A stretch of 64,000 nt of DNA from a phage. The notes beneath the pieces were generated by a model. It ran no database searches. It worked only from the letters and a program-made list of their open reading frames with translations, and was not told the origin of the DNA. Position 1 is the first letter of the stretch. Each line of letters starts with the position of its first letter. Positions 2,399-49,529 of the stretch are shown here, in pieces. The position numbers were made by a program, and so were the translations under genes. The stretch lies in the NCBI GenBank assembly GCA_028130375.1, contig GCA_028130375.1_3658.1; one strand, given 5' to 3'.

Positions 2399-4470
2399 TG
2401 GCAACAGCTGTTTTTAAACCTTACCGTGATTACTCTACAATGGCTGCACGGTTTCATTACCGAACAGTTCAGGATACTGCCGTTCCTGGTAGGGATTATG
2501 ATCATGTTGAGGGCGATGTAACTATCCCAGTTGGGGCAACCAGTATTGAGATCCCCGTGGAAATTGTTGACAAATTACCCAACAGGTTGCCAAGAAGCTT
2601 CTTTATGGAGTTTTCATCAAAATCTCAAGGGGTGATGATTGGAACACAAAGGGCGAAATGTACAATAGTTTCAGATGAGAATCTTGACAGGATATCTTGG
2701 GATACTATTGAGGAGAGAATGTTTCACCCAAGATATTGGGTTACAACCACTCAGCAGACTGAAAGTACCTGTATTGTTGCAGATAACAACTGTTGTATTA
2801 ACCGTTTAGTGTCAAGAACATATGGAGGTATGGCTGGGTGCATTTGGGAAACAGTTGACAAGTATGACCATTTCGGTATTGGGTTTGATGATCACTATGA
2901 GATGAGAAACACCAAGCTTTGGTTCAGAATGTCAATAACCAACGCCAGCAACTTCTCCACTCCTGAAAAGATGATTATGACTGTAGACCTTGTTGATGGC
3001 ACAATCATCTATGTTCCTTTAGCTCAATATGCTGTCAGCATCTCAGAGGATAAGAATGTTGCAGAAATTCATATTGATTTTGAGGACTGCGTCGGGATGG
3101 ACCAGAACAACAACATGATGGGTGTTGATCCTCGGCAGGTGAGAAGGATTTTAATACCGCTTATGCCTAAAGACTGGGTAAGTAATAGCACAGACCCGAG
3201 AACGGAAAATGTAGAGTGTGAGTTGCGCCTAGATCTGCTTCAGCCAGACACAGGCTGGAAAATGATGCAACTTAACAATATCCAGGTGAGAGAGCACGAT
3301 GTTGGGATCTGCACCGCATATGACGATATGTGGAACGTGTCTCCTTTAAGGGTGTTGAACAATATCAAGCGTCTGGGCTATACCGGAACCATAAACCATT
3401 ATGTTGGTATGAGTCATTATTATGACTACACATGGTCAGGAACCCAATGGTCTATAAACAGAACAGGAGCGCTAAACGCTGCAGCTTATAAATGGCATGA
3501 TGATTTTATGTACAATGCCAAACGACATAACTTCGACGTTATGCAATCTGTAAGTTTTGAGCTTTTCAGCGATGCCTGCCCGTTGGAATGGACCCAAAGA
3601 GACTGGAACGATAACTACGCTAAAACAGGGTATACACCTTGTAGCTACCTCCTGTCTCCAACCATTGAAGAGGGTATGAATTTCCTTACTGCAGTATTTA
3701 AGAATTTTGCATCAGCCGCTATGAGAAACAACCTGCCAGTGATTATGCAGGTTGGTGAACCGTGGTGGTGGTACAATACCGATACTCGTAGACCTTGTAT
3801 TTATGATTACCCTACAAAACAGGCGTTTTATGATGAGACAGGCGAGTATGCATTAGATATTGGGACTATTGACGATCCTAAAACTGGAGGTGTTTACGAT
3901 AAGTATGTAGCATTTTGTCGTGGTAAGCTTGGCGCTCGTATTGCGGCTATTTCAAAGGCAATAAAGGCACACGCTGCATCAGCTCAGATGACAGCTCTGC
4001 TGTTTTTCCCAACCATTATGGAAACCGAGCTTACGCAAAAGCTTAACCTTGCTGACCAATATAAAAAGGAAGCAGGTGCTCTTGATTTCTTCTGCACCGA
4101 GTGCTACGATTGGGTGATGCAGGGAGGTATTGAAAAGGCAAAAGAGTCTGTAAACATACCTATCGTTAAGTTAGGTTGGCAACCGTCTGAAATACAATAC
4201 CTTGCAGGGTTCGTTCCTAGTAAAGAGCTTGCTCCGGTATATGGTTACGACCCAACCAGGAATTACCAAGAATTTTTATGGAGATGTATTTGCGGAAACA
4301 TGGCAACTATAGAGTATAGATATCCTGAGGTAAAACAGTATGTGTGGGCATACCCGCAAGTAATGTCTGACAGCATCACTGTTACCGCTAGAGATTCTAC
4401 CGTGCTTCATATGGGGCAGGTTGCTCTGAAAGGGTATGTAGAAGATGTTGTCCCGCCAGACTTCTCATAA
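2398..4470 (+). CDS. Putative baseplate or tail-fibre structural protein
   Basis: 690-aa ORF, start overlaps upstream stop (ATGG), sits in the structural operon. Confidence 0.4.
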   Translation: MATAVFKPYRDYSTMAARFHYRTVQDTAVPGRDYDHVEGDVTIPVGATSIEIPVEIVDKLPNRLPRSFFMEFSSKSQGVMIGTQRAKCTIVSDENLDRISWDTIEERMFHPRYWVTTTQQTESTCIVADNNCCINRLVSRTYGGMAGCIWETVDKYDHFGIGFDDHYEMRNTKLWFRMSITNASNFSTPEKMIMTVDLVDGTIIYVPLAQYAVSISEDKNVAEIHIDFEDCVGMDQNNNMMGVDPRQVRRILIPLMPKDWVSNSTDPRTENVECELRLDLLQPDTGWKMMQLNNIQVREHDVGICTAYDDMWNVSPLRVLNNIKRLGYTGTINHYVGMSHYYDYTWSGTQWSINRTGALNAAAYKWHDDFMYNAKRHNFDVMQSVSFELFSDACPLEWTQRDWNDNYAKTGYTPCSYLLSPTIEEGMNFLTAVFKNFASAAMRNNLPVIMQVGEPWWWYNTDTRRPCIYDYPTKQAFYDETGEYALDIGTIDDPKTGGVYDKYVAFCRGKLGARIAAISKAIKAHAASAQMTALLFFPTIMETELTQKLNLADQYKKEAGALDFFCTECYDWVMQGGIEKAKESVNIPIVKLGWQPSEIQYLAGFVPSKELAPVYGYDPTRNYQEFLWRCICGNMATIEYRYPEVKQYVWAYPQVMSDSITVTARDSTVLHMGQVALKGYVEDVVPPDFS

Positions 4471-12600: not shown

Positions 12601-15299
12601 CAGTTGACCCTTATATCATCATGACTGCACTGAGATCAAACATGGATGGGACATCCATGTCCATGCAAATTCCGGTAACAAACGGATACAAACGTGTTGT
12701 GATGATCATTAAGTGCGACCTGATAGGTAAACAAGTTCTTGCAGAAAACGGGACATCCACACATCCTTTTGAGATCGCTCTGCACTATCAGTTTGCTGAC
12801 TCACCTTTTGCAGGGGATAAGAGAATATCTGATACAGACGCACAGCGTTGTAAGAAAGTATTGTTGGGTGCAGGTTGGTGGTGGTATGAGTTTGATTTAA
12901 CAGACAAATTCACCGACACGTCTAAAGTTGTAACAGGACTTCGTCTAGACCTTGGCGAGAACATGCACAAAGCTGTTTGTGATGGCACCTATGGTGACCC
13001 TACAATATACCTAAAATATGTTTCTTTTGAGCATCCGGAAGATGTTGTCTACGGTCCAAAACTGAGATTGTTTGGCAGCTGGATTGCAAAAGATAGGGTA
13101 GGCATGGGTAAGAAGGTAAGAGGGTTCTTGGTTGATGCAGGAACAGAAGACATGCTGGTTAATGCAGTATGGCCTGAATTACCTGGGACTCAGTGGGACA
13201 ACTCAGCCAAATCTATAAACTGGTTTAACATTCATAGGGCCATGTGGACCACTAACTGCTACTTGTGGAGAGAGCTTAACGATCAGGCCTTTGGATTCAG
13301 CGATGGTAGAAGGATGGCGATCATTTGCTGGACAACACTGCAAAGATGTTATGACCATGACTATGAGATTGGGGGCAGGGCATGGAAAAATATCAGGGAT
13401 AGAATCATAACCAATTTTGCAGACGACAACGGTGGTGGAGCACATAACTTTGGCACAAGCCGACTCATCCATTTGAACGGATCCTCAGCCTACAAGAAAG
13501 AAGGTTACTCTGGGTCTATGATCGAGTGGGGTCTGGTGAAAGATGCTCGCGTATTGATGGGCCAGCAACTTGCTGCCGCAATAGGTCCCAGCGCAGTGCA
13601 GTCGGTTAAACCAGCGTGGTTCGATATTCCATTGTGGTCACCCGGAACACCGGGAACTGCTGCAATCAACCCTGCCACTGGGGATCTGGAAATCTCCTGG
13701 GAAGACCTGAAGCAGGTCGGTGGTTGGGACAAAACAGGGTATCAGGTTCAATGGTGGAGGGCTGACGGATCTTTAGCCGCTGATGAGTTTGTTAAGGACA
13801 ATTTCTACACTATGTCCTCTGCAAAAGCACAGCAATTATTTGGTCAGGCAACTCCGTCAACGATCACCATGTCTATGTGCTGTAAAGACAACAGGACTGG
13901 AGCTTTGGGGCCAAGGGTTGCTAAAGTTTTCTCAGGTATTAAATGGAATCTACCTGTCCAAAGTATTTCATGGAAGCAAATAGGTGATAACAAGCTGCTG
14001 GTTACCCCTGCCTGTCAGTTCAACGCAACTCTTAACGTTGATCCTGCTGTTGCGGCAAACTCAGCTAAAGCTTCTGACTTCTCTGTGTCTAACACTGCTA
14101 TGGCAGATGTGAGGAAGATTGACACGCTGAACGCCAGAATTACCTGTAAAAACACTTATGGCACATTCCAAATCATCAACAACTTCACAGATGCTGATTC
14201 TAAGGTAGTGAGGACAGCAAGCCAGACTCTGAGTTTAGGAACTCTGGCCTATGCGGCCCTGATCACCGAACAGTCGGCAACACTCCAAGGAGGTGGTGTA
14301 GGCAAGTCCATTACAACACCTGTGTGGAAGCCAAATGAGTGGGTTGTGTTTGATTTGACTGTGGACTTCTCCAGCGATAATAACTGGACATGGGTAAGGA
14401 ATTGTTTGTCACAGTTGATGGGCGGTCCAAGCTCCGTTAGTGATAGTCACGACTCTACTGACCCGAGTGTGTTCCAGGTAGGTAAAACTCACCCAGAGAC
14501 TGGAGAAACGTTGCCTGACAGGAAGTATGCTTTGGTTTGCATCTCTTACGGGAAGGCAGATGTCACCTTCTCAGGGACACACACTTATAACGGAACCTAC
14601 AACTTCTCAAGGAAGTATAGTCTCAAAGCAGGGAACATTATAGACGAGGTTGGTGTGCTGTATAATCCGGGCAACGGCATAGGGATTGTTGGTGGTAAAC
14701 TGCAGATGCAGGAACCTTCTATTACCCCTTCCAACGTATCCGGGATTAGAAAGACTTGGGAAAGTAGTAATACCAACATTGCAACAGTGGATGCCACCAC
14801 AGGACTGGTAACATTTAAAGCTACTGGGAATGTCACCATAAAGTTTGTAGTTACAGATGATGCAGGGCGCAAAACGTCTTCAACATCTTTTACTGTCAAA
14901 CAGATGGCACCACAGTGGAGAATGTGGATAGGTACAGCAACAAACGGGGCATACCCTAATCCGGCAGGTACTTCTGGTATGAAGACTTTCTCTACAAGCA
15001 AACCGATGGAGTACGGCAGCGGTCCTAAGGTAGGGCAGATGGTGTACTTTGGTGCGTATATTCCTGAAATTATAGGGCTTCCGAGAAGTCAGCTTCAGTT
15101 GCTGTTTGGGGCTGGTGTTGACGATCTTGCCACTTTCGGGTATAGCGACAACATCGAGGCTGCAAGGAGTTCAGGATGGGTAGGGTTCAGAATGGAGTCT
15201 GGAAAGGAAGGCAGGATTCTAGGGACAGCCTCTATAGGTGTTATGTTCCCTGGTGACCAGCAGTATCGTCTAGAAGCCTACGCAACCTTTTCTCGTTAA
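9663..15299 (+). CDS. Giant tail fibre / adhesin with Ig-like (Big_2-type) domain
   Basis: 1878-aa ORF at the end of the structural operon; C-terminal segment ITPSNVSGIRKTWESSNTNIATVDATTGLVTFKATGNVTIKFVVTDDAGRKTSSTSFTV resembles bacterial Ig-like group 2 domains. Confidence 0.55.
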   Translation: MLPIPLLKLGRHFLDKRGGIKELAVLSYPIDNSDGTSNTVSYVNSLAILFDDGQLNITGYNKFGECRTGDRSPINYPSETAWNVDHVWRADRAFVIRTFDNQFFYIGCTAGLIGSTAAGGNDVCVNEWTPLPEQIVKGLHLDTHPERLIEVMGGINNTVWVIAEAEGTGILNLYGSGNNTYGSLHVDKNQHATPVKIGETSENPETGPWKNPSINCEVHDNSVIFGGPRGFWIAGYDFLRNNSRNDLVWPPVQVTRNDLRGIPADEEWKGFMCGPNGAVIATQRMHRPDDQQLVNVFYGQNIWGDDTWRELNITYTHEVMMARGYGTSGIFFNNGTKQYRGFSRNLCNDIGAQSANNSPRADFIHYQALATAKYVEQRLPVSWTESVYFQGIHREGFLGTFTVVNGKLWWSGIPRGSFTGSNNLFGGRLNSQGFTEVPENWYKNVPVDSWGVDDIFDVNGVSSVSNIYIGDTVKMKLKPQPEGATFIIDKIELVNAAGTVVTDANYQFSTNWNHGGANEVVVTQYNRNVNRRGLYSVKITYHDKHGTGRTHTTRTLNWNTIVPAYPSNGKWHTVGRNKQFHVNDTVYFGLNGTQPAVEGDTSYMVRLHRMDAGSVTYDVTQEIYDQRRATYDNIVKTQALWEFNPNGKGGKMLQINEQNGTSLTVHEHPDPWPDPGKPHPGARTLKIVSHDAGYFGIRWEATVRYVDGTTNNIGITLGGTSEDNSLKIAYTPRGISIDNMDVVRNGYGDVNVKVTLGEHLGGERIIMYAFDHDPRTNGTYANQAWSYLINAPEPNTKEFYYGMKRDVCKKTGTHDWIAICVKDERTAWDEPVNRWFIGIPTRSDKYVAEYIVCMGGTNLNMCWNEDVNKYSDYDYMRDYSCNLWFNQTTGYPPRQARVNPAIFTDTQVFLTKQANEVQTFKNKYDPNKWFYNCYGAFFWGPGELPGGGSCLNEATYASDYIMGQVKKYKIIPGPETLGNAVDPYIIMTALRSNMDGTSMSMQIPVTNGYKRVVMIIKCDLIGKQVLAENGTSTHPFEIALHYQFADSPFAGDKRISDTDAQRCKKVLLGAGWWWYEFDLTDKFTDTSKVVTGLRLDLGENMHKAVCDGTYGDPTIYLKYVSFEHPEDVVYGPKLRLFGSWIAKDRVGMGKKVRGFLVDAGTEDMLVNAVWPELPGTQWDNSAKSINWFNIHRAMWTTNCYLWRELNDQAFGFSDGRRMAIICWTTLQRCYDHDYEIGGRAWKNIRDRIITNFADDNGGGAHNFGTSRLIHLNGSSAYKKEGYSGSMIEWGLVKDARVLMGQQLAAAIGPSAVQSVKPAWFDIPLWSPGTPGTAAINPATGDLEISWEDLKQVGGWDKTGYQVQWWRADGSLAADEFVKDNFYTMSSAKAQQLFGQATPSTITMSMCCKDNRTGALGPRVAKVFSGIKWNLPVQSISWKQIGDNKLLVTPACQFNATLNVDPAVAANSAKASDFSVSNTAMADVRKIDTLNARITCKNTYGTFQIINNFTDADSKVVRTASQTLSLGTLAYAALITEQSATLQGGGVGKSITTPVWKPNEWVVFDLTVDFSSDNNWTWVRNCLSQLMGGPSSVSDSHDSTDPSVFQVGKTHPETGETLPDRKYALVCISYGKADVTFSGTHTYNGTYNFSRKYSLKAGNIIDEVGVLYNPGNGIGIVGGKLQMQEPSITPSNVSGIRKTWESSNTNIATVDATTGLVTFKATGNVTIKFVVTDDAGRKTSSTSFTVKQMAPQWRMWIGTATNGAYPNPAGTSGMKTFSTSKPMEYGSGPKVGQMVYFGAYIPEIIGLPRSQLQLLFGAGVDDLATFGYSDNIEAARSSGWVGFRMESGKEGRILGTASIGVMFPGDQQYRLEAYATFSR

Positions 15300-37522: not shown

Positions 37523-40300
37523 ATGAGCATGTGGTCGTTCGATTTTGAGTCATCCGGTTTGCTGGAAGACCCAGATCTTTATTATCACTGCGGTCTGTTT
37601 AAAGAGCTGAATAAGAACCGTTTTATGCTGTTCCTTCCTCTAAATGACCGCACACACTACTCCGAGGAGGATATGGAGAAGGCTAAGAACTTTATTCTGG
37701 CAAAGAAAACTCTTTATAAAGATTTTGAAGTTCGCATAGCAGATTTTTCGGAGTTGGAAGGTTGGCTCACAGGCAATTCCGACTGGTCACCAACAGCTTT
37801 GAACTGCCATAACTGCTACAGTTATGACTTTATGCTGATGGAAAGATTATCCGGTATTCATTTTGATATGTTCCGTGATCCTAAATGCATGGGGACTATC
37901 AACGACCACCAGGTTAACCTGTTTGATACGTTGGCGATGAGCCGAATCTTATGGCCTGATCGCCCTTTACCAAAAGGTTGTCCTGACTCCGTATTCAACC
38001 CGGTTACTAAGAAAATGCAGCCTGTTGGTCCTCACGGCCTTATGGCATGGGGCTACGCCCTTGGTAACCAGAAAGTTCAAATTGATGACTGGCGCGATCT
38101 TCCGTTGTGGAAGTATGTGGATCGTGTATTCGAGGACGTTATCATCCAGGAGCTGCTCTGGAAAGAGCTGGTAGCGGAATCAAAAGGTGTATTCTACGGC
38201 AAATCTGACATGCAGAACTTTATGTACGATCCTGCCAAAGAGAAGCCGAAAGGGTTCAAGAAGATCACCTGGAAGAACGCATTGCGCCGGGGTATGCTGC
38301 AACACTTCCTGATGGAGCTGCAGGCCCGTCAGGGTGTGTATTTTGACATAGATGGAGCTATTGCTTTACGTGACCGTTGCGATGCGTGGATGAAAGAAAT
38401 CGCTGATCGTGTTGAACCGCAACTACCTTTAAAAGAGCTGTCAATGTCTCAGCGGCCCAAGTTCCCTGAAAAGCCGTTTAACCAAGATGGGACAATCTCC
38501 AATAATGGTTGGAAATGGTTAAAAGATAAGCTTGGCTATCCTGTAGATATGAGCGCTTTAGAGTTCAAAGCCCCGCCTAAGCGAGCATTTACCTCTACAG
38601 GAGATGTCAGTAAGATGGGGATAAAATGGTGTGAAGAGATGGGCTGCAAAGACCCCGATAAGATGGCTGATTTCTTGAGAGGCTATATTAAGGGCACCTC
38701 CACACCACAACCTTTACCTAAAGAGCTAATGGATCAGGCAATAAGTGATCTACAGCAGAAGCGAATGCCGGACTGCAAGATACCTATGAAAATCAGCAAC
38801 CAGGACGACATTAAGCGATACCTGATCAGTGCTGGTTGGCTTCCAACAATGTGGAGAACTAAGGATGTAACTAAAGACAGCAAGAAGAAAGCTCTACCTG
38901 ATGCAGATGTTGATGCACGAGTATATGCATATATGGACGAGCTTTTAGAGTCAGAGTATTGTGACCTGATTATCAACTTCTGGAACAAAACTGATGCTAA
39001 GTTCCAGACAACCGTGCACAAGTTCCGAAGCTTTCCTAACTCCGAAAGGATTAAAAAGGAAGTATTCGGGAAAATACGTAGAAAAGCTAGGGCACTTATT
39101 ACTTCTCCGCAACTGAAAGATACGTTTGGACACCTATGCCCTAATCTTGAAAAATTGAACGGAGAGATGGCTAAAGATATCGTCTTGTGGTTATCATTGC
39201 GAAACCGCAGATCGGTCCTTGATCCAATCAAGGAGGATAAGGTTGATACTGGTCTTCTTAATCACCCACGTTTGAAGATTGACCATAAGCTTCCTGCTAA
39301 AAGTTCTGGATTAACAAACACTTCCCGACAGAAACACAGTATTTGTGCAAACATGCCTAAACCATCTCCTAAAGTGGTTATGGGTAAAGAGATGCGTAGT
39401 CTGTGGGGTGTTCCTCCAGGATACTTTGAGATCGGTATTGACGGGTCCAACTTAGAGCAGCTTATCGGGGCTTGGGGTGCCTTTGAGTTCGACAACGGCC
39501 TGTATTACGATGTTGTAAGTAACGGGGACGCACACCAAAACAATGCTGAGGCATATACAAAAGTAGCAGGTAGAGAGGTGTCTCGTAACGACGGTAAACC
39601 TATCACGTATGGGGTTATGTATGGGGCACAAAAAGATAAAGTTGCAGATATGCTGGACATCTCTCCAGAGTTGGGACAAAGGGTAATCGATGCACTCTGG
39701 GATGCCAACCCTGGTCTTAAGGGGCGTAAAGAAGATCTGGAGAAATTCTGGGAAGCAACGGGTAAGAAGTTTATCTACTCTTTTGATGGTCATGCTATCT
39801 GGACCCGATCTAAACACTCTTTACTTAATGCATACCAACAAAATGGCGGTGCATCGTTGTGTGATTTAGTTGGGATACTCATGCACCACCAAATGGTGAA
39901 GCGTGGGTGGTACGATGAAGGTGTCCGTCGTATTATTTATTACCATGACGAATATCAGCTTCAAGTCCCTGACACACCGAAGTATAAGACTGTGTACACC
40001 TTCGACACAATTGAAGAACTGGAAGCATTTAAGGCAGAACAGGAGGCCAAACTTCATGTGTTCGACGGTCATAAGTACAAAAAGGCACGCAAAGATGAGG
40101 ACGGAAACGAAGTAGTTGACAGGGACGGAAACACGGTGTACGATCCTATCCTGAACGATGACGGAAAGCTTGAGCTTATCTGGAGCCCTGTGGGTGAAAT
40201 GGTGGTGCATTGCTTCTGGCAAGCTTCTAAAATGATGGGAGTCCCGTTCCAGATCACAGGTGAATACCTGTGTGGTCGTAATTGGGGTGATTGTCACTAA
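37523..40300 (+). CDS. DNA polymerase, family A, with 3'-5' exonuclease domain
   Basis: 925 aa; Exo I FDFESSG; motif A-like IGIDGSNLEQL, motif B-like RNDGKPITYGVMYG, motif C YYHDEYQL. Confidence 0.9.
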   Translation: MSMWSFDFESSGLLEDPDLYYHCGLFKELNKNRFMLFLPLNDRTHYSEEDMEKAKNFILAKKTLYKDFEVRIADFSELEGWLTGNSDWSPTALNCHNCYSYDFMLMERLSGIHFDMFRDPKCMGTINDHQVNLFDTLAMSRILWPDRPLPKGCPDSVFNPVTKKMQPVGPHGLMAWGYALGNQKVQIDDWRDLPLWKYVDRVFEDVIIQELLWKELVAESKGVFYGKSDMQNFMYDPAKEKPKGFKKITWKNALRRGMLQHFLMELQARQGVYFDIDGAIALRDRCDAWMKEIADRVEPQLPLKELSMSQRPKFPEKPFNQDGTISNNGWKWLKDKLGYPVDMSALEFKAPPKRAFTSTGDVSKMGIKWCEEMGCKDPDKMADFLRGYIKGTSTPQPLPKELMDQAISDLQQKRMPDCKIPMKISNQDDIKRYLISAGWLPTMWRTKDVTKDSKKKALPDADVDARVYAYMDELLESEYCDLIINFWNKTDAKFQTTVHKFRSFPNSERIKKEVFGKIRRKARALITSPQLKDTFGHLCPNLEKLNGEMAKDIVLWLSLRNRRSVLDPIKEDKVDTGLLNHPRLKIDHKLPAKSSGLTNTSRQKHSICANMPKPSPKVVMGKEMRSLWGVPPGYFEIGIDGSNLEQLIGAWGAFEFDNGLYYDVVSNGDAHQNNAEAYTKVAGREVSRNDGKPITYGVMYGAQKDKVADMLDISPELGQRVIDALWDANPGLKGRKEDLEKFWEATGKKFIYSFDGHAIWTRSKHSLLNAYQQNGGASLCDLVGILMHHQMVKRGWYDEGVRRIIYYHDEYQLQVPDTPKYKTVYTFDTIEELEAFKAEQEAKLHVFDGHKYKKARKDEDGNEVVDRDGNTVYDPILNDDGKLELIWSPVGEMVVHCFWQASKMMGVPFQITGEYLCGRNWGDCH

Positions 40301-43146: not shown

Positions 43147-43512
43147 ATGGAACAAATGAACGATCAAACGTCGGTTGCAATGAACGAGCAAGAACAACCT
43201 CAAGAATTTTTCTTAGGGTTAAGTAAAGATCAAGTGTCTCTTTTGCTAGTGCTTTCTTCTTTCATGGGAAGACTTCAGGAGCTCACACAACAACCGGAGG
43301 CTGAACAATTATTTCAGGCTCTGCGCGAAGAAGAAAAATATCGTCGTTTGGACTATGCCTTAGGTTGGGTAGCTCAACAACGAGATATGCTGATGGCTCT
43401 CTCTGGGACCACAAGTTTTGCAATGGGCCTGTTGGCTCAAGTTCAGGACAAATTAATTCAGGCAGGGTTTGCACACACGGCAAACACTAACGAAGAACAA
43501 GGAGACAAATAA
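43147..43512 (+). CDS. Hypothetical protein
   Basis: 121-aa ORF directly upstream of SSB. Confidence 0.45.
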   Translation: MEQMNDQTSVAMNEQEQPQEFFLGLSKDQVSLLLVLSSFMGRLQELTQQPEAEQLFQALREEEKYRRLDYALGWVAQQRDMLMALSGTTSFAMGLLAQVQDKLIQAGFAHTANTNEEQGDK

Positions 43513-44738
43513 TGAGCGTTATTCAACAATTCGCTAACCCGATGAATCCGCGTGAAACTGTTTTACTGGCTCACGGCATGATTAAACGTGTCAGCATCAA
43601 GCCTATCAAAGGTGCTGATCCTACAACAGGTATTAAAACCACTGTGTGGCAAGGTAAGAAAATTGAATCCAGCCACACCATCTCTTTACTGATTTCTGAA
43701 CTGGATTCCTCTGATAACCTGCTTCAAGGTGGTGAAGAAGTTTGGATCAGTATGGGTGATAAGCTGCTTAAACCTGGTCATCAAGACTCTGTCTCTGTTA
43801 AAATTGATGACAAGTGGGAAACCGTAACGCCGGGATGGATCGTAAATATCCCTTTGAAGGCAAACGAGCATAACGGTAAGACCTATTACAAAGGCTCACT
43901 AGCTAAGATGGTCAAGCTGGGTGCAGGAGAGGCTCCAGCAGCGACCCAGCAGCAAAAACAGCAACAAGGTGCACAATCACAAGGCCAGAAGCAGAAACCT
44001 CAGCAGAATGCCAATCAGGACGTTTTACGCATCTATGGCGATGTGACTCAGATTGTTGGCAACGTGGTTACTGTTAATGACCACAAGATTGGCGAAGGTG
44101 CCATGGTTGTCACTGATGAGCAGCTTAAAGACCTGGTGGTAGGTGGTCGTGTTGCAGCCATTGTTGACAAAGACACCGGAAACATTATCAGTGGTTTCAA
44201 AGCCTATCCACCTAAGGCAGAGAACGGCACCCAAGGCTCTGGTGGCAAGCGTAAATCCTCTTACGACCCTATTGGTGTGGAGACGGGACATAGCATCAAT
44301 GCGTTGCAAATCATCCTAGATCGCGGGTTTAAGGTGGACGACCCACTAAGCGTGGCTAAAACACTGCACGTAGTCACCGTTGAGCTTAAGAAAGAGTATG
44401 CTCAAGCCACCAACCGAACTGAGGATGAAGTAGGTGCCAGTGTCGGTAATGCGGTGTTGAACGCTTGTCGCCGTATTGACAAGAAAACGAAAGTTGATGA
44501 TTTTGCAGCGGCAATTACTGCAGAAGCAAAAGATGTCTTGACTAATCTGGCTGAGCCGTTGTACGATTGGATCAAGAACGGTGCTGGGTCAACTGACCAT
44601 CAAGAACCTCAGGCTGCCAAACAGGAAGCAGCTCCACAGCAAAACACTGTAGACGCTCCTCCTGTAAATGATGAGGAAGATGACCCAATGGATCAGAATC
44701 CAGCACAGTACGCCTTTGATGATGACATCCCTTTTTAA
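43512..44738 (+). CDS. ssb: Single-stranded DNA-binding protein
   Basis: 408 aa; Gln/Gly-rich linker and acidic C-terminus ending DDDIPF, as in E. coli SSB; located in the replication module. Confidence 0.6.
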   Translation: MSVIQQFANPMNPRETVLLAHGMIKRVSIKPIKGADPTTGIKTTVWQGKKIESSHTISLLISELDSSDNLLQGGEEVWISMGDKLLKPGHQDSVSVKIDDKWETVTPGWIVNIPLKANEHNGKTYYKGSLAKMVKLGAGEAPAATQQQKQQQGAQSQGQKQKPQQNANQDVLRIYGDVTQIVGNVVTVNDHKIGEGAMVVTDEQLKDLVVGGRVAAIVDKDTGNIISGFKAYPPKAENGTQGSGGKRKSSYDPIGVETGHSINALQIILDRGFKVDDPLSVAKTLHVVTVELKKEYAQATNRTEDEVGASVGNAVLNACRRIDKKTKVDDFAAAITAEAKDVLTNLAEPLYDWIKNGAGSTDHQEPQAAKQEAAPQQNTVDAPPVNDEEDDPMDQNPAQYAFDDDIPF

Positions 44739-44753
44739 CAATTAGTTAACATA

Positions 44754-44782
44754 GCCCTGCCCGAAAGGGTGGGGCATTTTTG
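44754..44782 (+). terminator. Rho-independent terminator (identical hairpin to 34587-34608)
   Basis: gccctgcccgaaagggtggggc followed by attttt. Confidence 0.65.
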
Positions 44783-44800: not shown

Positions 44801-45217
44801 ATGACATTAGAAGATATCATTGTTAAACCTGAGAACTATGACCAATACAATCTGTCAACTCAATCTGTAGACCTCGGATGCGCCACAGTCAGTGCATGGC
44901 TGGTTAACGGAAAAGAGCTGGATAAATGCTTAGAAGCTCACATGTCTATTAACAAGTTTCTGGATGAAAATACTCACTGGCTTGAAGGTGCAGGCGTATA
45001 TGCTTCATGGTTGGAGAGTATGGGATTCGACTACCAATCTGAAGAGGGGTGGTGGAGCTATTTAGCTATCTGCCCAGAGACGCTGCAATGCTTCATGAAA
45101 TATTCTGAAGATTTGGAGTACCGGGCGGTGGTTGATAGTGCTATTGCCCGTTATAGCCGTAAACCTTTTTCCCACGACATTAAAACTGTGGAAGAATTTG
45201 TTGAAGTTTTCTGTTGA
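44801..45217 (+). CDS. Hypothetical protein
   Basis: 138-aa ORF. Confidence 0.45.
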   Translation: MTLEDIIVKPENYDQYNLSTQSVDLGCATVSAWLVNGKELDKCLEAHMSINKFLDENTHWLEGAGVYASWLESMGFDYQSEEGWWSYLAICPETLQCFMKYSEDLEYRAVVDSAIARYSRKPFSHDIKTVEEFVEVFC

Positions 45218-45313
45218 CACAAGTTGAAAGGTGTGCAATTATAACTTCATAGAACGGGAGGACGTGATGAACGAAGAAAACTGGGATGTATAACTAACAG
45301 GAGGCCACTGCCC

Positions 45314-45511
45314 ATGATTTATCGAATCCGTGTAAGAGAAGATGCACCAGGCTGTTACTTTGACTGGCGTGGGTGGTGGTTTCTCCACCCGATGGATGGA
45401 CTCACAGATAGAATGCTGGATGCTGCCCTTTATACAGATACCGACATAGAATATAATCTCTATCTGAAGGACGGTATAGATAACGGTCTATTTGAAGCAA
45501 TTCCTGTGTAA
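45314..45511 (+). CDS. Hypothetical small protein
   Basis: 65 aa, RBS aggagg. Confidence 0.4.
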   Translation: MIYRIRVREDAPGCYFDWRGWWFLHPMDGLTDRMLDAALYTDTDIEYNLYLKDGIDNGLFEAIPV

Positions 45512-45579
45512 GAGACTGTGATAGCCATGTTTTATGATCTTCCTGTAGCACCACCACCTGTTGAACCCGGAGAACTAAG

Positions 45580-46005
45580 ATGACCTATGAAATGCCAAAA
45601 CTGATTCGTGACGATGCCCAAAACGCCCACACCTTTATCATGGGCAAACGCATGGATATTATTTGTCATAAAGATTTCTGGGAAGGGAGTTACTTCACAG
45701 AGTATTTTGGTAAACTGGACAATGGTCTGCTGATCCAGCTCTACACCGATGCGGAAAACAACATTCACTGGGAGTTCGAAACTGAAGATATCCATAAACT
45801 TTTCACCTTCCTCGGTATTAAGGTTGAGGCCAAGTTTGAAGAAGGTGAGTGCGACGATTGTGGATTCTATGAGGTAACAGATTTCTATCTCCCGAGTGGT
45901 GAGAACCTTTACTATGAAAGCCACTTCGGTAACTCCAATATGCCACAGTGCTGGACTGAGTTTTTTGAAATTGCGGAAGAGGAGCTGGCATACCGTGATT
46001 ATTGA
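45580..46005 (+). CDS. Hypothetical protein
   Basis: 141 aa, RBS ggagaa. Confidence 0.45.
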   Translation: MTYEMPKLIRDDAQNAHTFIMGKRMDIICHKDFWEGSYFTEYFGKLDNGLLIQLYTDAENNIHWEFETEDIHKLFTFLGIKVEAKFEEGECDDCGFYEVTDFYLPSGENLYYESHFGNSNMPQCWTEFFEIAEEELAYRDY

Positions 46006-46453
46006 TACTGTAGAGGGGGATTTAATCTCCCTTTTTAAGAGCGGTGCTGGTCACCTGATCCACGGTTGCAACTGCTTCCACACAATGGGCAAGGGGATAG
46101 CAAAACAGATCGCCCGTGAGTTCCCTCAAGCACTGGCAGCTGACAAAGAGACCAGACATGGTTGCCTAAGTAAACTGGGCGCGTTCTCAAGATGGGAGCA
46201 CTTATCTCCGATAGGTATTGTCTACGGAATAAATCTGTATACTCAGTTCTACCCAGGGCCTAATGCTGAATATTTCTCAATCCTGAAAGGCTTTGAGCGA
46301 GTCAATGAGGTATTCGAGGGATCGACTTTACCATTCTACATCCCTAAGATCGGGTGCGGCATAGGCGGTTTGAAGTGGGAACACGTAGAGGACGTTATTA
46401 ACCTTGCCACTTTCGACATAGATATTGTCGTGGTGGAGTACAAAAAGTGTTGA
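45993..46453 (+). CDS. Macro-domain (ADP-ribose binding/hydrolase-like) protein
   Basis: GTG start after gaggag; GDL...HLIHGCNC...MGKGIAKQI and FYIPKIGCGIGGLK resemble the macro-domain signature segments. Confidence 0.55.
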
Positions 46454-46705
46454 CGACAATCTTCTGAGGTGATATAGTTTCCACAACAACTAAGAGAGGA
46501 GAGCACTGTGGAGACTAAAATCTTAATTCTTGCTGTGGTAGATACAACCGAAGGAGCTATATTCGAATCTGCAGGAGGGTATTTCTACCTACCATACGGA
46601 AAAAGAACTTCCGAGCCAAGTAAAGATTCAATCCTCAAAGTGTTCCCGTGTGCTTTCTGGCTGGAGATTTTGGTATAAGATTGCAGAGGATTTGGGAGAG
46701 AATTA

Positions 46706-48279: not shown

Positions 48280-48589
48280 TACTTGAAAATTCCTGGCATA
48301 TCAAGTGTAAGGAGGATTTCTAAAATGGATTTCCTCCTTTTGATATTTCACCGGGTTAGATATTTTAAAATTCTTAGAAAATCAGAAAATGGATCGAAAA
48401 CTAAAATGGATTTTTCAGAGCAGGCGCGACAAACCGAATCACTCATCCTATCGTTTGCACCATATTCCAGTCCACCATTACAGATTTCCCGCACATGCTT
48501 ACATCCTTCTACTGGAACTTCCTCCACTTACCCTTGACCTTTTATGGTAATAATCTAACCACTATCTTGAGGTTGCGGTACAGCTTTCC

Positions 48590-48770
48590 GGGTACTCGAT
48601 CTGTTTTTCGTTTCAAAGATTGAATTTTCTTAAAATTTTTCTCGATAAATTTCTCAGTACTCGATCTGTTTTTCGTTTTCTGAATCGGATTTTCTGGAAA
48701 TCGTTCCGGAGCTCGACCTGAAATTTTTGGGAACGAAATCGATTTTTCGTTTTCAGAAATGGATTTTTAA
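48590..48770. repeat. AT-rich direct repeats (tactcgatctgtttttcgttt x2 plus degenerate copy)
   Basis: Exact 21-bp repeat at about 48591-48611 and 48655-48675; related cgatttttcgttttc near 48740; aaatggattt motif recurs 4 times in 48320-48760. Confidence 0.6.
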
Positions 48771-48881
48771 AATTTCTATATGGGAATATTTTATGGGATA
48801 CTGTTTTATAGGAAATTGTTACGGAGGGTAATTAGCACGCTAATTAAATTTATTAAATGCGAGGAGTTCTCATTTAGAATT

Positions 48882-48900
48882 TTGAATGATAATCATTCTC
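48882..48900. promoter_or_regulatory. Fur-box-like operator (15/19 match to GATAATGATAATCATTATC)
   Basis: ttgaatgataatcattctc. Confidence 0.45.
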
Positions 48901-49016
48901 GTTTGCAGAATAACGGGCACCCCCGGTGATTGTCTCCCGGCCCCTGTTGCCCCGGCTTGTTATTATAGTATCACACAGGACAAAGAAGGCAAGGATTTTT
49001 TGCATAAATTTTTAAA

Positions 49017-49035
49017 TGATAATGATAACCGTTCT
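49017..49035. promoter_or_regulatory. Fur-box-like operator (16/19 match)
   Basis: gataatgataaccgttctc; followed, like the first copy, by a GC-rich about 35-bp element. Confidence 0.45.
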
Positions 49036-49055
49036 CATTTTATGCAGCGCCCATC

Positions 49056-49090
49056 CCCGGTGGTTATCTCCCCCGTCACCGGTGCCTGCC
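49056..49090. repeat. GC-rich dispersed element (inverted copy at 58031-58066, partial copy at 48918-48945)
   Basis: ccggtggttatctcccccgtcaccggtgcctgccg versus reverse complement of 58031-58066 (about 31/35 identical). Confidence 0.55.
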
Positions 49091-49529
49091 GTCCTTTCGA
49101 TAGGTATATTGTGCCACCTGGCGGGGCCGCTGTCAACACCTTTCAAAAAAAATTATAACCAGGTGCGCCCACTGCCAGGACCTGGCGGGGCCAGTCTGGC
49201 AGGGGAGAGTGAAAGCTTGCAAACCTGGTAGGGCTATGCTATAGGGTAGGCAACAACTGGAGAGGAGGTACAAAAATGAAAGGTAATATGATCCCCTGGA
49301 AAATGTAGCGACTAATGACGCTGAGGCTATCGCCATGGTTGAAAAGGCTATGGCGGGAGCGTTGGAACATAAAGAAGAGTACGAAAAAATGGTGGTTAAC
49401 CTGGCGGGGGCGGCAGGTGGATTCTATCATAAAAATAATTTAAAATAGTCGTTGACAACAAGGTTAATCATGGTATTATTACCCTACAAGGTGAACAACA
49501 CCGCACTAACCAGTAAAGAGGATAAATTT

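Follow-up and report, generated by a model that had tools for sequence, protein, structure and literature searches.

What does a small, stand-alone macrodomain do for the phage that carries it? We take up this question for a 152-amino-acid protein encoded on the plus strand of a 64,000-nucleotide stretch of phage DNA (contig GCA_028130375.1_3658.1; the whole stretch is referred to here as ‘the window’). The window comes from an rV5-like Vequintavirus and shares 96-97% identity with Escherichia phages of that kind. An earlier interpretation made directly from the letters of the window (the ‘sequence-only reading’) had described the product as an ADP-ribose-binding macro domain, and had suggested that it could either reverse host ADP-ribosylation-based defence or process NAD-derived signalling molecules. 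Here we arrive at a narrower proposal, to which we assign a probability of roughly 0.6: that the protein would serve as an early-expressed ‘orphan antitoxin’, removing the ADP-ribose that DarT2 installs on thymidines in the single-stranded DNA (ssDNA) of the phage.

The gene is an ordinary member of a very common and already recognised phage family, and is annotated in close relatives, where near-identical records label it ‘macro domain protein’, ‘phosphatase’ or ‘T4-like phage protein with Macro domain, Poa1p_like family’.

Fold and class of the encoded protein

The product matches both the Pfam Macro model (PF01661; E=1.7e-6, 28.4 bits against a gathering cutoff of 22) and PHROG 335 (‘phosphatase’; E=2.5e-60), and a family profile built from 52 homologues recovers solved macrodomains at an E-value of about 1e-15. 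An AlphaFold2 model, generated on the 52-homologue alignment (predicted local distance difference test score 96.4, predicted template-modelling score 0.91), was compared with the PDB using Foldseek, giving a probability of 1.00 and TARG1 as the best match (template-modelling (TM) score 0.78); at E<=1e-3 the comparison gave 177 structural matches, and the top 50 consist, with few exceptions, of macrodomains or designed look-alikes. With the Pfam, PHROG, family-profile and Foldseek scores all strong, a chance match is ruled out, and the initial call of a macro domain is borne out by the Pfam, family-profile and structural comparisons.

The top 24 Foldseek matches comprise TARG1, Poa1p, DarG (the Thermus aquaticus and Mycobacterium tuberculosis macrodomains), Thermosipho DarTG, BT1257, TTHA0132 and SCO6735, together with two designed hydrolases; viral MacroD-like domains first appear at rank 26, with lower TM scores, and sequence searches of the PDB are led by the same TARG1/DarG/SCO6735/Poa1p set. 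On sequence and predicted fold alike, the protein is best classed as a macrodomain of the TARG1/DarG/SCO6735/Poa1p (‘ALC1-like’) class, and not of the MacroD, PARG or macroH2A type. MacroD and YmdB, originally put forward as comparators, turned out to be poor choices, neither being present among the 16 PDB sequence matches or the top 25 structural matches; as closest class they were rejected, since the TARG1/DarG/SCO6735/Poa1p set leads the searches by both sequence and structure.

The best-scoring specific family model is that of DarG (NCBIfam NF048014, E=1.2e-12), at 47.8 bits against an equivalog cutoff of 250, with a match that spans the macro part only (model positions 3-141 of 338); the PADLOC model for DarG behaves in the same way (E=9.4e-14, positions 4-142 of 329 only). 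Both models score so low because the protein is without the second domain of DarG. Membership of the DarG2 antitoxins was rejected, given the absence of the C-terminal DarT-binding domain and of a DarT neighbour, the replacement of Lys80 by Gln and the score far below cutoff. Profile scores do not discriminate between an affinity with DarG and one with SCO6735 (61.6 versus 61.0 bits).

Active site and glycine-rich loops

To place the active site, sequences of reference structures were recovered from PDB alignments and aligned to the family with both hmmalign and MAFFT, and the two methods agree; conservation was counted in the 52 homologues (down to 33% identity) and in 143 further cluster representatives, 195 sequences in all. 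The sequence-only reading had staked its case on recovery of a macro fold and on alignment of the conserved Gly-rich loop with the ADP-ribose site: the fold is recovered, as set out above, and both Gly-rich loops align to the ADP-ribose-binding loops of solved macrodomains. The first pairs with the MGKGIA loops of DarG, SCO6735 and TARG1, with Gly34 and Ala36 invariant. All four of the peptide segments that it had quoted (EGDLISL, HLIHGCNC, MGKGIAKQI and FYIPKIGCGIGG) are present in the translation.

Asn26, Asn80 and Gln84 are invariant (52/52 homologues and 143/143 cluster representatives), and His23 is kept in 51/52 and 140/143, respectively. His23, equivalent by alignment to His24 of SCO6735 and His23 of Poa1p, is also His in T4 Tk.4, BT1257 and TARG1, and is Asn in DarG of both M. 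tuberculosis and T. aquaticus. At column 26, Asn is common to the window protein, Tk.4, SCO6735, BT1257, DarG and Poa1p, with Ser in TARG1; at column 80, the Asn of the window protein, Tk.4, SCO6735, BT1257 and DarG is Tyr in TARG1 and Cys (Ser by MAFFT) in Poa1p. Column 84 holds Gln in the window protein, Tk.4, SCO6735 (the essential Gln85) and BT1257, the catalytic Lys in DarG (Lys80 in T. aquaticus) and TARG1 (Lys84), and Ser in Poa1p. Finally, column 124 is Gly in the phage proteins and DarG, Ala in SCO6735 and BT1257, Asp125 in TARG1 and Phe in Poa1p. A TARG1-type mechanism, which uses the Lys84/Asp125 dyad, was rejected, as the equivalent columns hold Gln84 and Gly124.

Of these proteins, SCO6735 offers the closest chemical parallel. 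It clears thymidine-linked ADP-ribose from DarT-modified ssDNA and protects Streptomyces coelicolor against DarT; the substitutions Q85A, Q85E and N27S abolish this removal, Asn27 holds Gln85 in place, and the mechanism has been proposed to be water-mediated (PMC9411070). Because it carries the same Asn, Gln and His columns, the window protein is predicted, from alignment and by analogy, to be SCO6735-like rather than DarG-like in its chemistry.

Relationship to T4 Tk.4 and distribution of the family

The window protein is 40% identical to Tk.4 of phage T4 over 153 amino acids (BLASTP, E=9e-42), and the family profile recovers Tk.4 at 5.6e-52. According to a 2025 preprint, exposure of a T4 transposon library to DarTG2 gave tk.4 as the sole hit, and a clean tk.4 knockout left T4 sensitive to DarTG2; its authors name the gene adfM (10.1101/2025.11.20.689424). 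The suggestion that a phage copy might reverse ADP-ribosylation-based defence, for which DarTG had been named, agrees well with our best-supported reading, given that Tk.4 is reportedly needed for resistance to DarTG2.

In the T4-type phage Krischvirus KFS-EC (NC_055757.1, 1501-1956), the syntenic tk.4 slot (gene order regB-vs-macro-...-tk-rI) is filled by a gene whose product is 70% identical to the window protein but only 45% identical to T4 Tk.4 itself. This arrangement places the window protein, as judged from synteny and identity, in the same orthologous group as tk.4, and suggests that T4-type and rV5-type coliphages have exchanged the macro gene. Phage T5, on which DarTG2 imposes a strong restriction (PMC11825919), lacks the family altogether: a profile search of all 121,750 bp of its genome gave a best match of 10 bits, where the T4 control scored 167 bits. 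This absence is consistent with an anti-DarTG2 role. As a separate observation, T5.105 (NC_005859, 7789-8295), annotated as a Sir2 NAD-dependent deacetylase, is a 168-amino-acid protein that looks HAD-phosphatase-like from its DIDGVLN start, and is probably mis-annotated.

More widely, a six-frame search found homologues in 2,799 of 50,697 phage records, and an exhaustive profile search gave 1,318 clusters (at 50% identity) at E<=1e-30 and 18,813 at E<=1e-3; Macro domains have been reported in 41% of myoviruses (Iyer et al., PMC9503650). We note that 16 records labelled ‘Campylobacter phage’ (host C. jejuni, ~143 kb; e.g. MG065644.1) are 90-95% identical to the rV5-like region, with a macrodomain protein that is 94.7% identical, and that their host label looks doubtful.

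The ratio of non-synonymous to synonymous substitution (dN/dS) among Vequintavirus orthologues is 0.09-0.12, which shows that intact copies, the window copy included, are under strong purifying selection. Broken copies also occur. On contigs of Vequintavirus size (~135 kb), a natural deletion in P0017 joins the first ~53 residues of the upstream open reading frame (ORF), with the frame preserved, to the C-terminal half of the macro protein, so that Asn26 and Gln84 are lost; P0020 has an internal deletion; and P0038 and P0055 are frameshifted. In phage Alma (OV101294.1, 6996-7678) a frameshift follows macro codon 13; the gene may truly be a pseudogene, or the assembly may be wrong by 1 nt. Annotation there covers just the part from Met31 onward, and the label ‘Putative macro domain protein’ sits on an unrelated downstream 56-amino-acid ORF (window 46508-46678) that has no Pfam match. 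Selection on intact copies together with occasional broken ones fits a conditionally useful accessory gene.

Proposed function

We propose the following model for how the protein might act. Upon infection, host DarT2 would ADP-ribosylate thymidines in single-stranded phage DNA and so block replication, and the phage macrodomain would be made from an early-type gene array that is rich in sigma-70 promoters. Its two Gly-rich loops would bind ADP-ribose, with the Asn26-Gln84 pair positioning the distal ribose in the manner of Asn27-Gln85 in SCO6735; catalysis would then be water-mediated, as in SCO6735, and would proceed without a covalent Lys intermediate. Hydrolysis of the ribose-thymine bond would release ADP-ribose and restore normal DNA. 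Lacking a DarT-binding domain, the protein would act on the mark and not on the toxin. The observed fold, class, motif conservation, homology to Tk.4 and purifying selection all support such a model, and from them we infer, by analogy with characterised relatives, the protein's own activity, its substrate and the system that it targets.

Relatives in bacteria, and the company that the domain keeps, were also considered. Bacterial loci were collected with a profile of 11 closer sequences, which biases the sample towards close relatives; the 14 found (Ruegeria, Hyphomicrobiaceae, Desulfosarcina) are all Gln-type orphans beside housekeeping genes. A location beside DarT was rejected for these, as the 14 loci adjoin rpoC or an aminoacyl-tRNA synthetase gene, one of them with a NADAR neighbour: in Ruegeria sp. 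SCP10 (3472-4447), just downstream of rpoC, a NADAR gene overlaps the start of the Gln-type macro gene. Further, the three longest representatives of the family are Macro-NADAR fusions and two members carry DUF4326 (the metagenomic fusion members, Macro-NADAR and Macro/DUF4326, being P0224, P0118, P0186 and P0156). NADAR is a guanine-specific DNA ADP-ribose eraser, used by DarG1 and by phage AdfN, so that these pairings fit a thymine/guanine ‘division of labour’ and suggest combined erasers of thymine- and guanine-linked marks.

Several points weigh against the proposed role in removing DarT2 marks. The fusion evidence cuts both ways, as Iyer et al. take the Macro-NADAR-DUF4326 fusions to be processors of soluble ADP-ribose derivatives. 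The link to Tk.4 consists of 40% identity and a preprint with genetics only, and the genomic neighbours, all being of unknown function, lend no operon-level support. The enzyme class is promiscuous in vitro, with Glu/Asp-linked ADP-ribose on protein and uracil-linked ADP-ribose on RNA also serving as substrates. SCO6735, for its part, is only about 22-28% identical to the window protein and has a longer mobile loop, bearing Lys89 and Lys94, that is absent from the phage family; its DNA-contacting Lys34 is likewise not a family feature (Ala in 34/52 homologues and Ser in T4), the window protein having Lys33.

Alternative readings

The alternatives are not mutually exclusive, because the enzyme class is promiscuous. 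One holds that other macromolecules are the main substrate, whether protein (Glu/Asp-linked or otherwise) or RNA (for example with uracil-linked ADP-ribose), such that the phage would be opposing a host defence that uses an ADP-ribosyltransferase other than DarT2, or would tune ADP-ribosylation during infection. SCO6735 and TARG1 both de-modify Glu/Asp-ADP-ribosylated PARP1, an activity that Q85A kills as well (PMC9411070); TARG1, DarG and SCO6735 take uracil-linked ADP-ribose off single-stranded RNA; and ADP-ribosylation of mRNA is a known anti-phage mechanism (CmdTAC). We nonetheless consider this reading, in either form, unlikely, as the sole in vivo phenotype in the family, that of T4 tk.4, is specific to DarTG2, the adenine modification made by CmdT has so far been described as irreversible, and the 30 window ORFs scanned contain no ADP-ribosyltransferase or other NAD- or ADP-ribose-related domain.

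Also improbable, in our estimation, is a main role on soluble ADP-ribose derivatives, either as a ‘housekeeping’ ADP-ribose-1''-phosphate phosphatase or O-acetyl-ADP-ribose deacetylase, or through destruction or sequestration of the Thoeris signals gcADPR and His-ADPR. The database labels ‘phosphatase’, ‘Poa1p_like’ and ‘O-acetyl-ADP-ribose deacetylase’ point this way, but are homology transfers; the H-x-C-N-C motif is common to yeast Poa1p, whose His23 was a target of mutagenesis, but Poa1p has Ser and not Gln at 84 and also differs at 80. The NADAR/DUF4326 fusions, predicted by Iyer et al. to act on diffusible ADP-ribose derivatives, appear in a different light now that NADAR has been shown to be an eraser of guanine marks on DNA, and the window has no evident source of ADP-ribose-1''-phosphate of the Tpt1/KptA type. 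As regards Thoeris, host ThsA macro domains bind His-ADPR; the literature, searched for phage macrodomains that act on these signals, yielded anti-Thoeris proteins of the sponge type only and no hydrolase built on a phage macrodomain; the most relevant Thoeris paper concerns the macrodomain of the host effector ThsA. Action of a phage macrodomain on Thoeris signals is, then, speculative. A broader variant, in which the Gln-type phage family is (or is also) an enzymatic destroyer of diffusible ADP-ribose-derived immune signals, with NADAR/DUF4326 partners, has in our view no more than an outside chance; were it true, this would be the first macrodomain anti-signalling enzyme that is not a sponge, and the DarTG2 phenotype of tk.4 would be one facet of a broad-spectrum eraser.

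It is very improbable that the protein binds ADP-ribose without catalysis, as a reader or sponge, or that it is the product of a decaying gene without current function: some macrodomains do bind ADP-ribose only, the catalytic Lys of DarG/TARG1 is missing, several Vequintavirus-sized contigs carry the frameshifted or deleted copies described above and catalytically dead SCO6735 still inhibited DarT in vitro (PMC9411070), but the Gln in this column is essential in active SCO6735 (PMC9411070), none of the 195 diverse relatives departs from Asn26 or Gln84, and a dN/dS of ~0.1 indicates strong purifying selection on intact copies.

If removal of DarT2 marks is indeed the function, then rV5-like coliphages come already equipped with an enzyme against DarTG2. 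These phages are popular choices for phage therapy and biocontrol, and such an enzyme would help to explain and predict their host range on E. coli that carry DarTG2.

Gene structure and genomic context

The coordinates of the gene, its motifs and nearby signals are collected in Table 1. The ORF, taken mechanically, can be extended back to 45896, and the span first given for the gene (45993-46453) has the correct end, but its start falls 2 nt short of the in-frame GTG (45995-45997); from there, 152 codons run to the TGA stop at 46451-46453. The start at 45995 is favoured because the purine-rich tract, the N-termini of homologues (which open with the same M-I-I-D or M-I-V-K) and the annotation of orthologues agree: APECc02 gp029 (RefSeq) and its counterpart in rV5_ev168 are annotated from the equivalent GTG. 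From the end of the tract, GGAAGAGGAG, to the GTG is 10 nt.

The GTG had also been said to overlap the upstream stop. An overlap does exist, the last 11 nt of the upstream ORF (45995-46005) being the first 11 nt of the macrodomain gene, but the GTG does not lie on the stop codon itself (TGA, 46003-46005). Such an overlap makes it probable that the two are co-transcribed and translationally coupled, and APECc02 and rV5_ev168 have the same arrangement, with the same 11-nt overlap.

Table 1. Positions in the window of the macrodomain gene, its conserved motifs and neighbouring elements
Feature	Position	Strand	Basis or remark
Macrodomain coding sequence, 152 amino acids, GTG start and TGA stop	45995..46453	+	Sequence, homologues, start of RefSeq orthologue
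Codons H23-G24-C25-N26	46061..46072	+	Alignment; N26 = T. aquaticus DarG Asn22 = SCO6735 Asn27
Gly-rich loop 1, M31-G-K-G-I-A36, ADP-ribose phosphate-binding loop of macrodomains	46085..46102	+	Alignment
Codons N80-L-Y-T-Q84 (Q84 at 46244-46246)	46232..46246	+	Two alignment methods
Gly-rich loop 2, P117-K-I-G-C-G-I-G-G125	46343..46369	+	Alignment; Gly124 where TARG1 has catalytic Asp125
Upstream ORF, 141 amino acids, function not known, PHROG 8157, no Pfam match	45580..46005	+	ORF and profile scans
Purine-rich Shine-Dalgarno-like tract GGAAGAGGAG, inside upstream ORF	45975..45984	+	Read from sequence; putative role
Sigma-70-like promoter candidate, TTGACA-17-AATTAT with extended TG; could drive unit 45314-46453	45214..45242	+	Consensus scan only
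Second sigma-70-like promoter candidate	45429-45457	+	Consensus scan only
GC-rich hairpin with T-run, intrinsic-terminator-like	44754..44775	+	9-bp stem, 7 GC pairs

The gene sits downstream of the replication genes, in a ~20-kb array of small genes on the same strand whose functions are not known. Sites resembling sigma-70 promoters number 27 in 8 kb, where 14.4 +/- 4.1 would be expected, an excess that is consistent with early transcription by the host polymerase, and the terminator-like hairpin probably ends the preceding transcription unit. None of the ten flanking ORFs has a Pfam match (hence no DarT/DUF4433) and all fall in PHROGs of unknown function; in twenty further window ORFs there is no NADAR, ADP-ribosyltransferase, Sir2, Nudix or NAMPT domain. 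Scans of the window for tRNA genes and Rfam families found nothing. Recent horizontal acquisition, as judged by base composition, was rejected, the GC content of the gene being unremarkable.

A few further features of the region deserve mention. Three genes upstream of the macrodomain gene, 43512-44738 (plus strand) encodes a 408-amino-acid protein (PHROG 4477, no Pfam match) with a Gln-rich centre and the end ...AFDDDIPF, which we take to match the C-terminal tip of the E. coli single-stranded DNA-binding protein (SSB); the product may be the phage's own SSB, or may imitate the SSB tail and thereby recruit host proteins that interact with SSB. The DNA polymerase gene (37523-40300, plus strand) is one continuous ORF of 925 amino acids, and so the phage of the window is without the mobile insertion of ~0.83 kb, with an HNH endonuclease, that splits the APECc02 polymerase into two coding sequences (record 13376-14208). 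The stretch 48300-49450 is poor in ORFs and has the lowest GC content (0.38); its GC skew is reversed, and a long hairpin, rich in AT, lies at 48723-48760.

Comparison with known macrodomains

Amongst characterised proteins, T4 Tk.4/AdfM is the nearest counterpart: a stand-alone macrodomain of ~155 amino acids, similar to the window protein from end to end, with the HGCNCFHTMG and NLYTQFxPGPN motifs (including the Gln of the catalytic column) common to both. Each is encoded by a phage accessory gene in an early-type region and carries the PHROG-style database label ‘phosphatase’; unlike the window protein, which belongs to the Vequintavirinae, Tk.4 is found in the Straboviridae and in a different gene neighbourhood.

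SCO6735 (PDB 5E3B) and BT1257 (2FG1/2AFC) share with the window protein both their class and the His-x-Cys-Asn ... Asn-x-x-x-Gln constellation. SCO6735 is, moreover, itself an orphan that shields from DarT without being encoded beside it; it differs in being a bacterial chromosomal gene product, and in having the motif N-M-I-G-Q where the phage proteins have N-L-Y-T-Q.

The DarG2 macrodomain (T. aquaticus 5M31/5M3E; M. tuberculosis 5M3I) belongs to the best-scoring NCBIfam and PADLOC family and is the top PDB sequence match; its Asn22 is kept as Asn26, its Gly-rich loops correspond to those of the window protein, and both are expected to act on the same substrate. In contrast, its Lys80 is Gln in the window protein, which at 152 amino acids against ~340 has neither the C-terminal DarT-binding domain nor an adjacent DarT. 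Human TARG1/OARD1 (4J5R/4J5S) is the best structural match and shares the class and size of the window protein. It takes off both thymine- and uracil-linked ADP-ribose, but does so with its Lys84/Asp125 dyad, where the window protein has Gln84 and Gly124, along with Asn26 in place of Ser. Yeast Poa1p (6LFQ), an ADP-ribose-1''-phosphate phosphatase and the source of the ‘Poa1p_like’ and ‘phosphatase’ annotations, is of the same class, and in its L-I-H-x-C-N-C motif His23 and Asn26 bear the same numbers as in the window protein; it departs from the window protein not only at columns 80 and 84, but also in a large insertion before loop 2 and in reading N-S-G-I-F-G where the window protein reads G-C-G-I-G-G.

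Finally, there is biochemical proof that the chimallivirus AdfM (PhiKZ gp104) takes DarT2 marks off DNA, and it protects against DarTG2 (PMC13309987). Like the window protein it is a phage-encoded macrodomain, but it is of the Lys type by its paper's description (putative N23/K78), is imported into the phage nucleus and comes from another phage group. T4 Tk.4 and at least 195 sampled relatives have, instead, a SCO6735-style Asn/Gln site and not the catalytic Lys of DarG and TARG1. With the T4-type family being Gln-type and PhiKZ gp104 Lys-type, the two ‘AdfM’ proteins would represent chemically different solutions to one problem; recognition of the T4-type AdfM family as Gln-type, unlike DarG and the PhiKZ-type AdfM, is the most useful by-product of this analysis.

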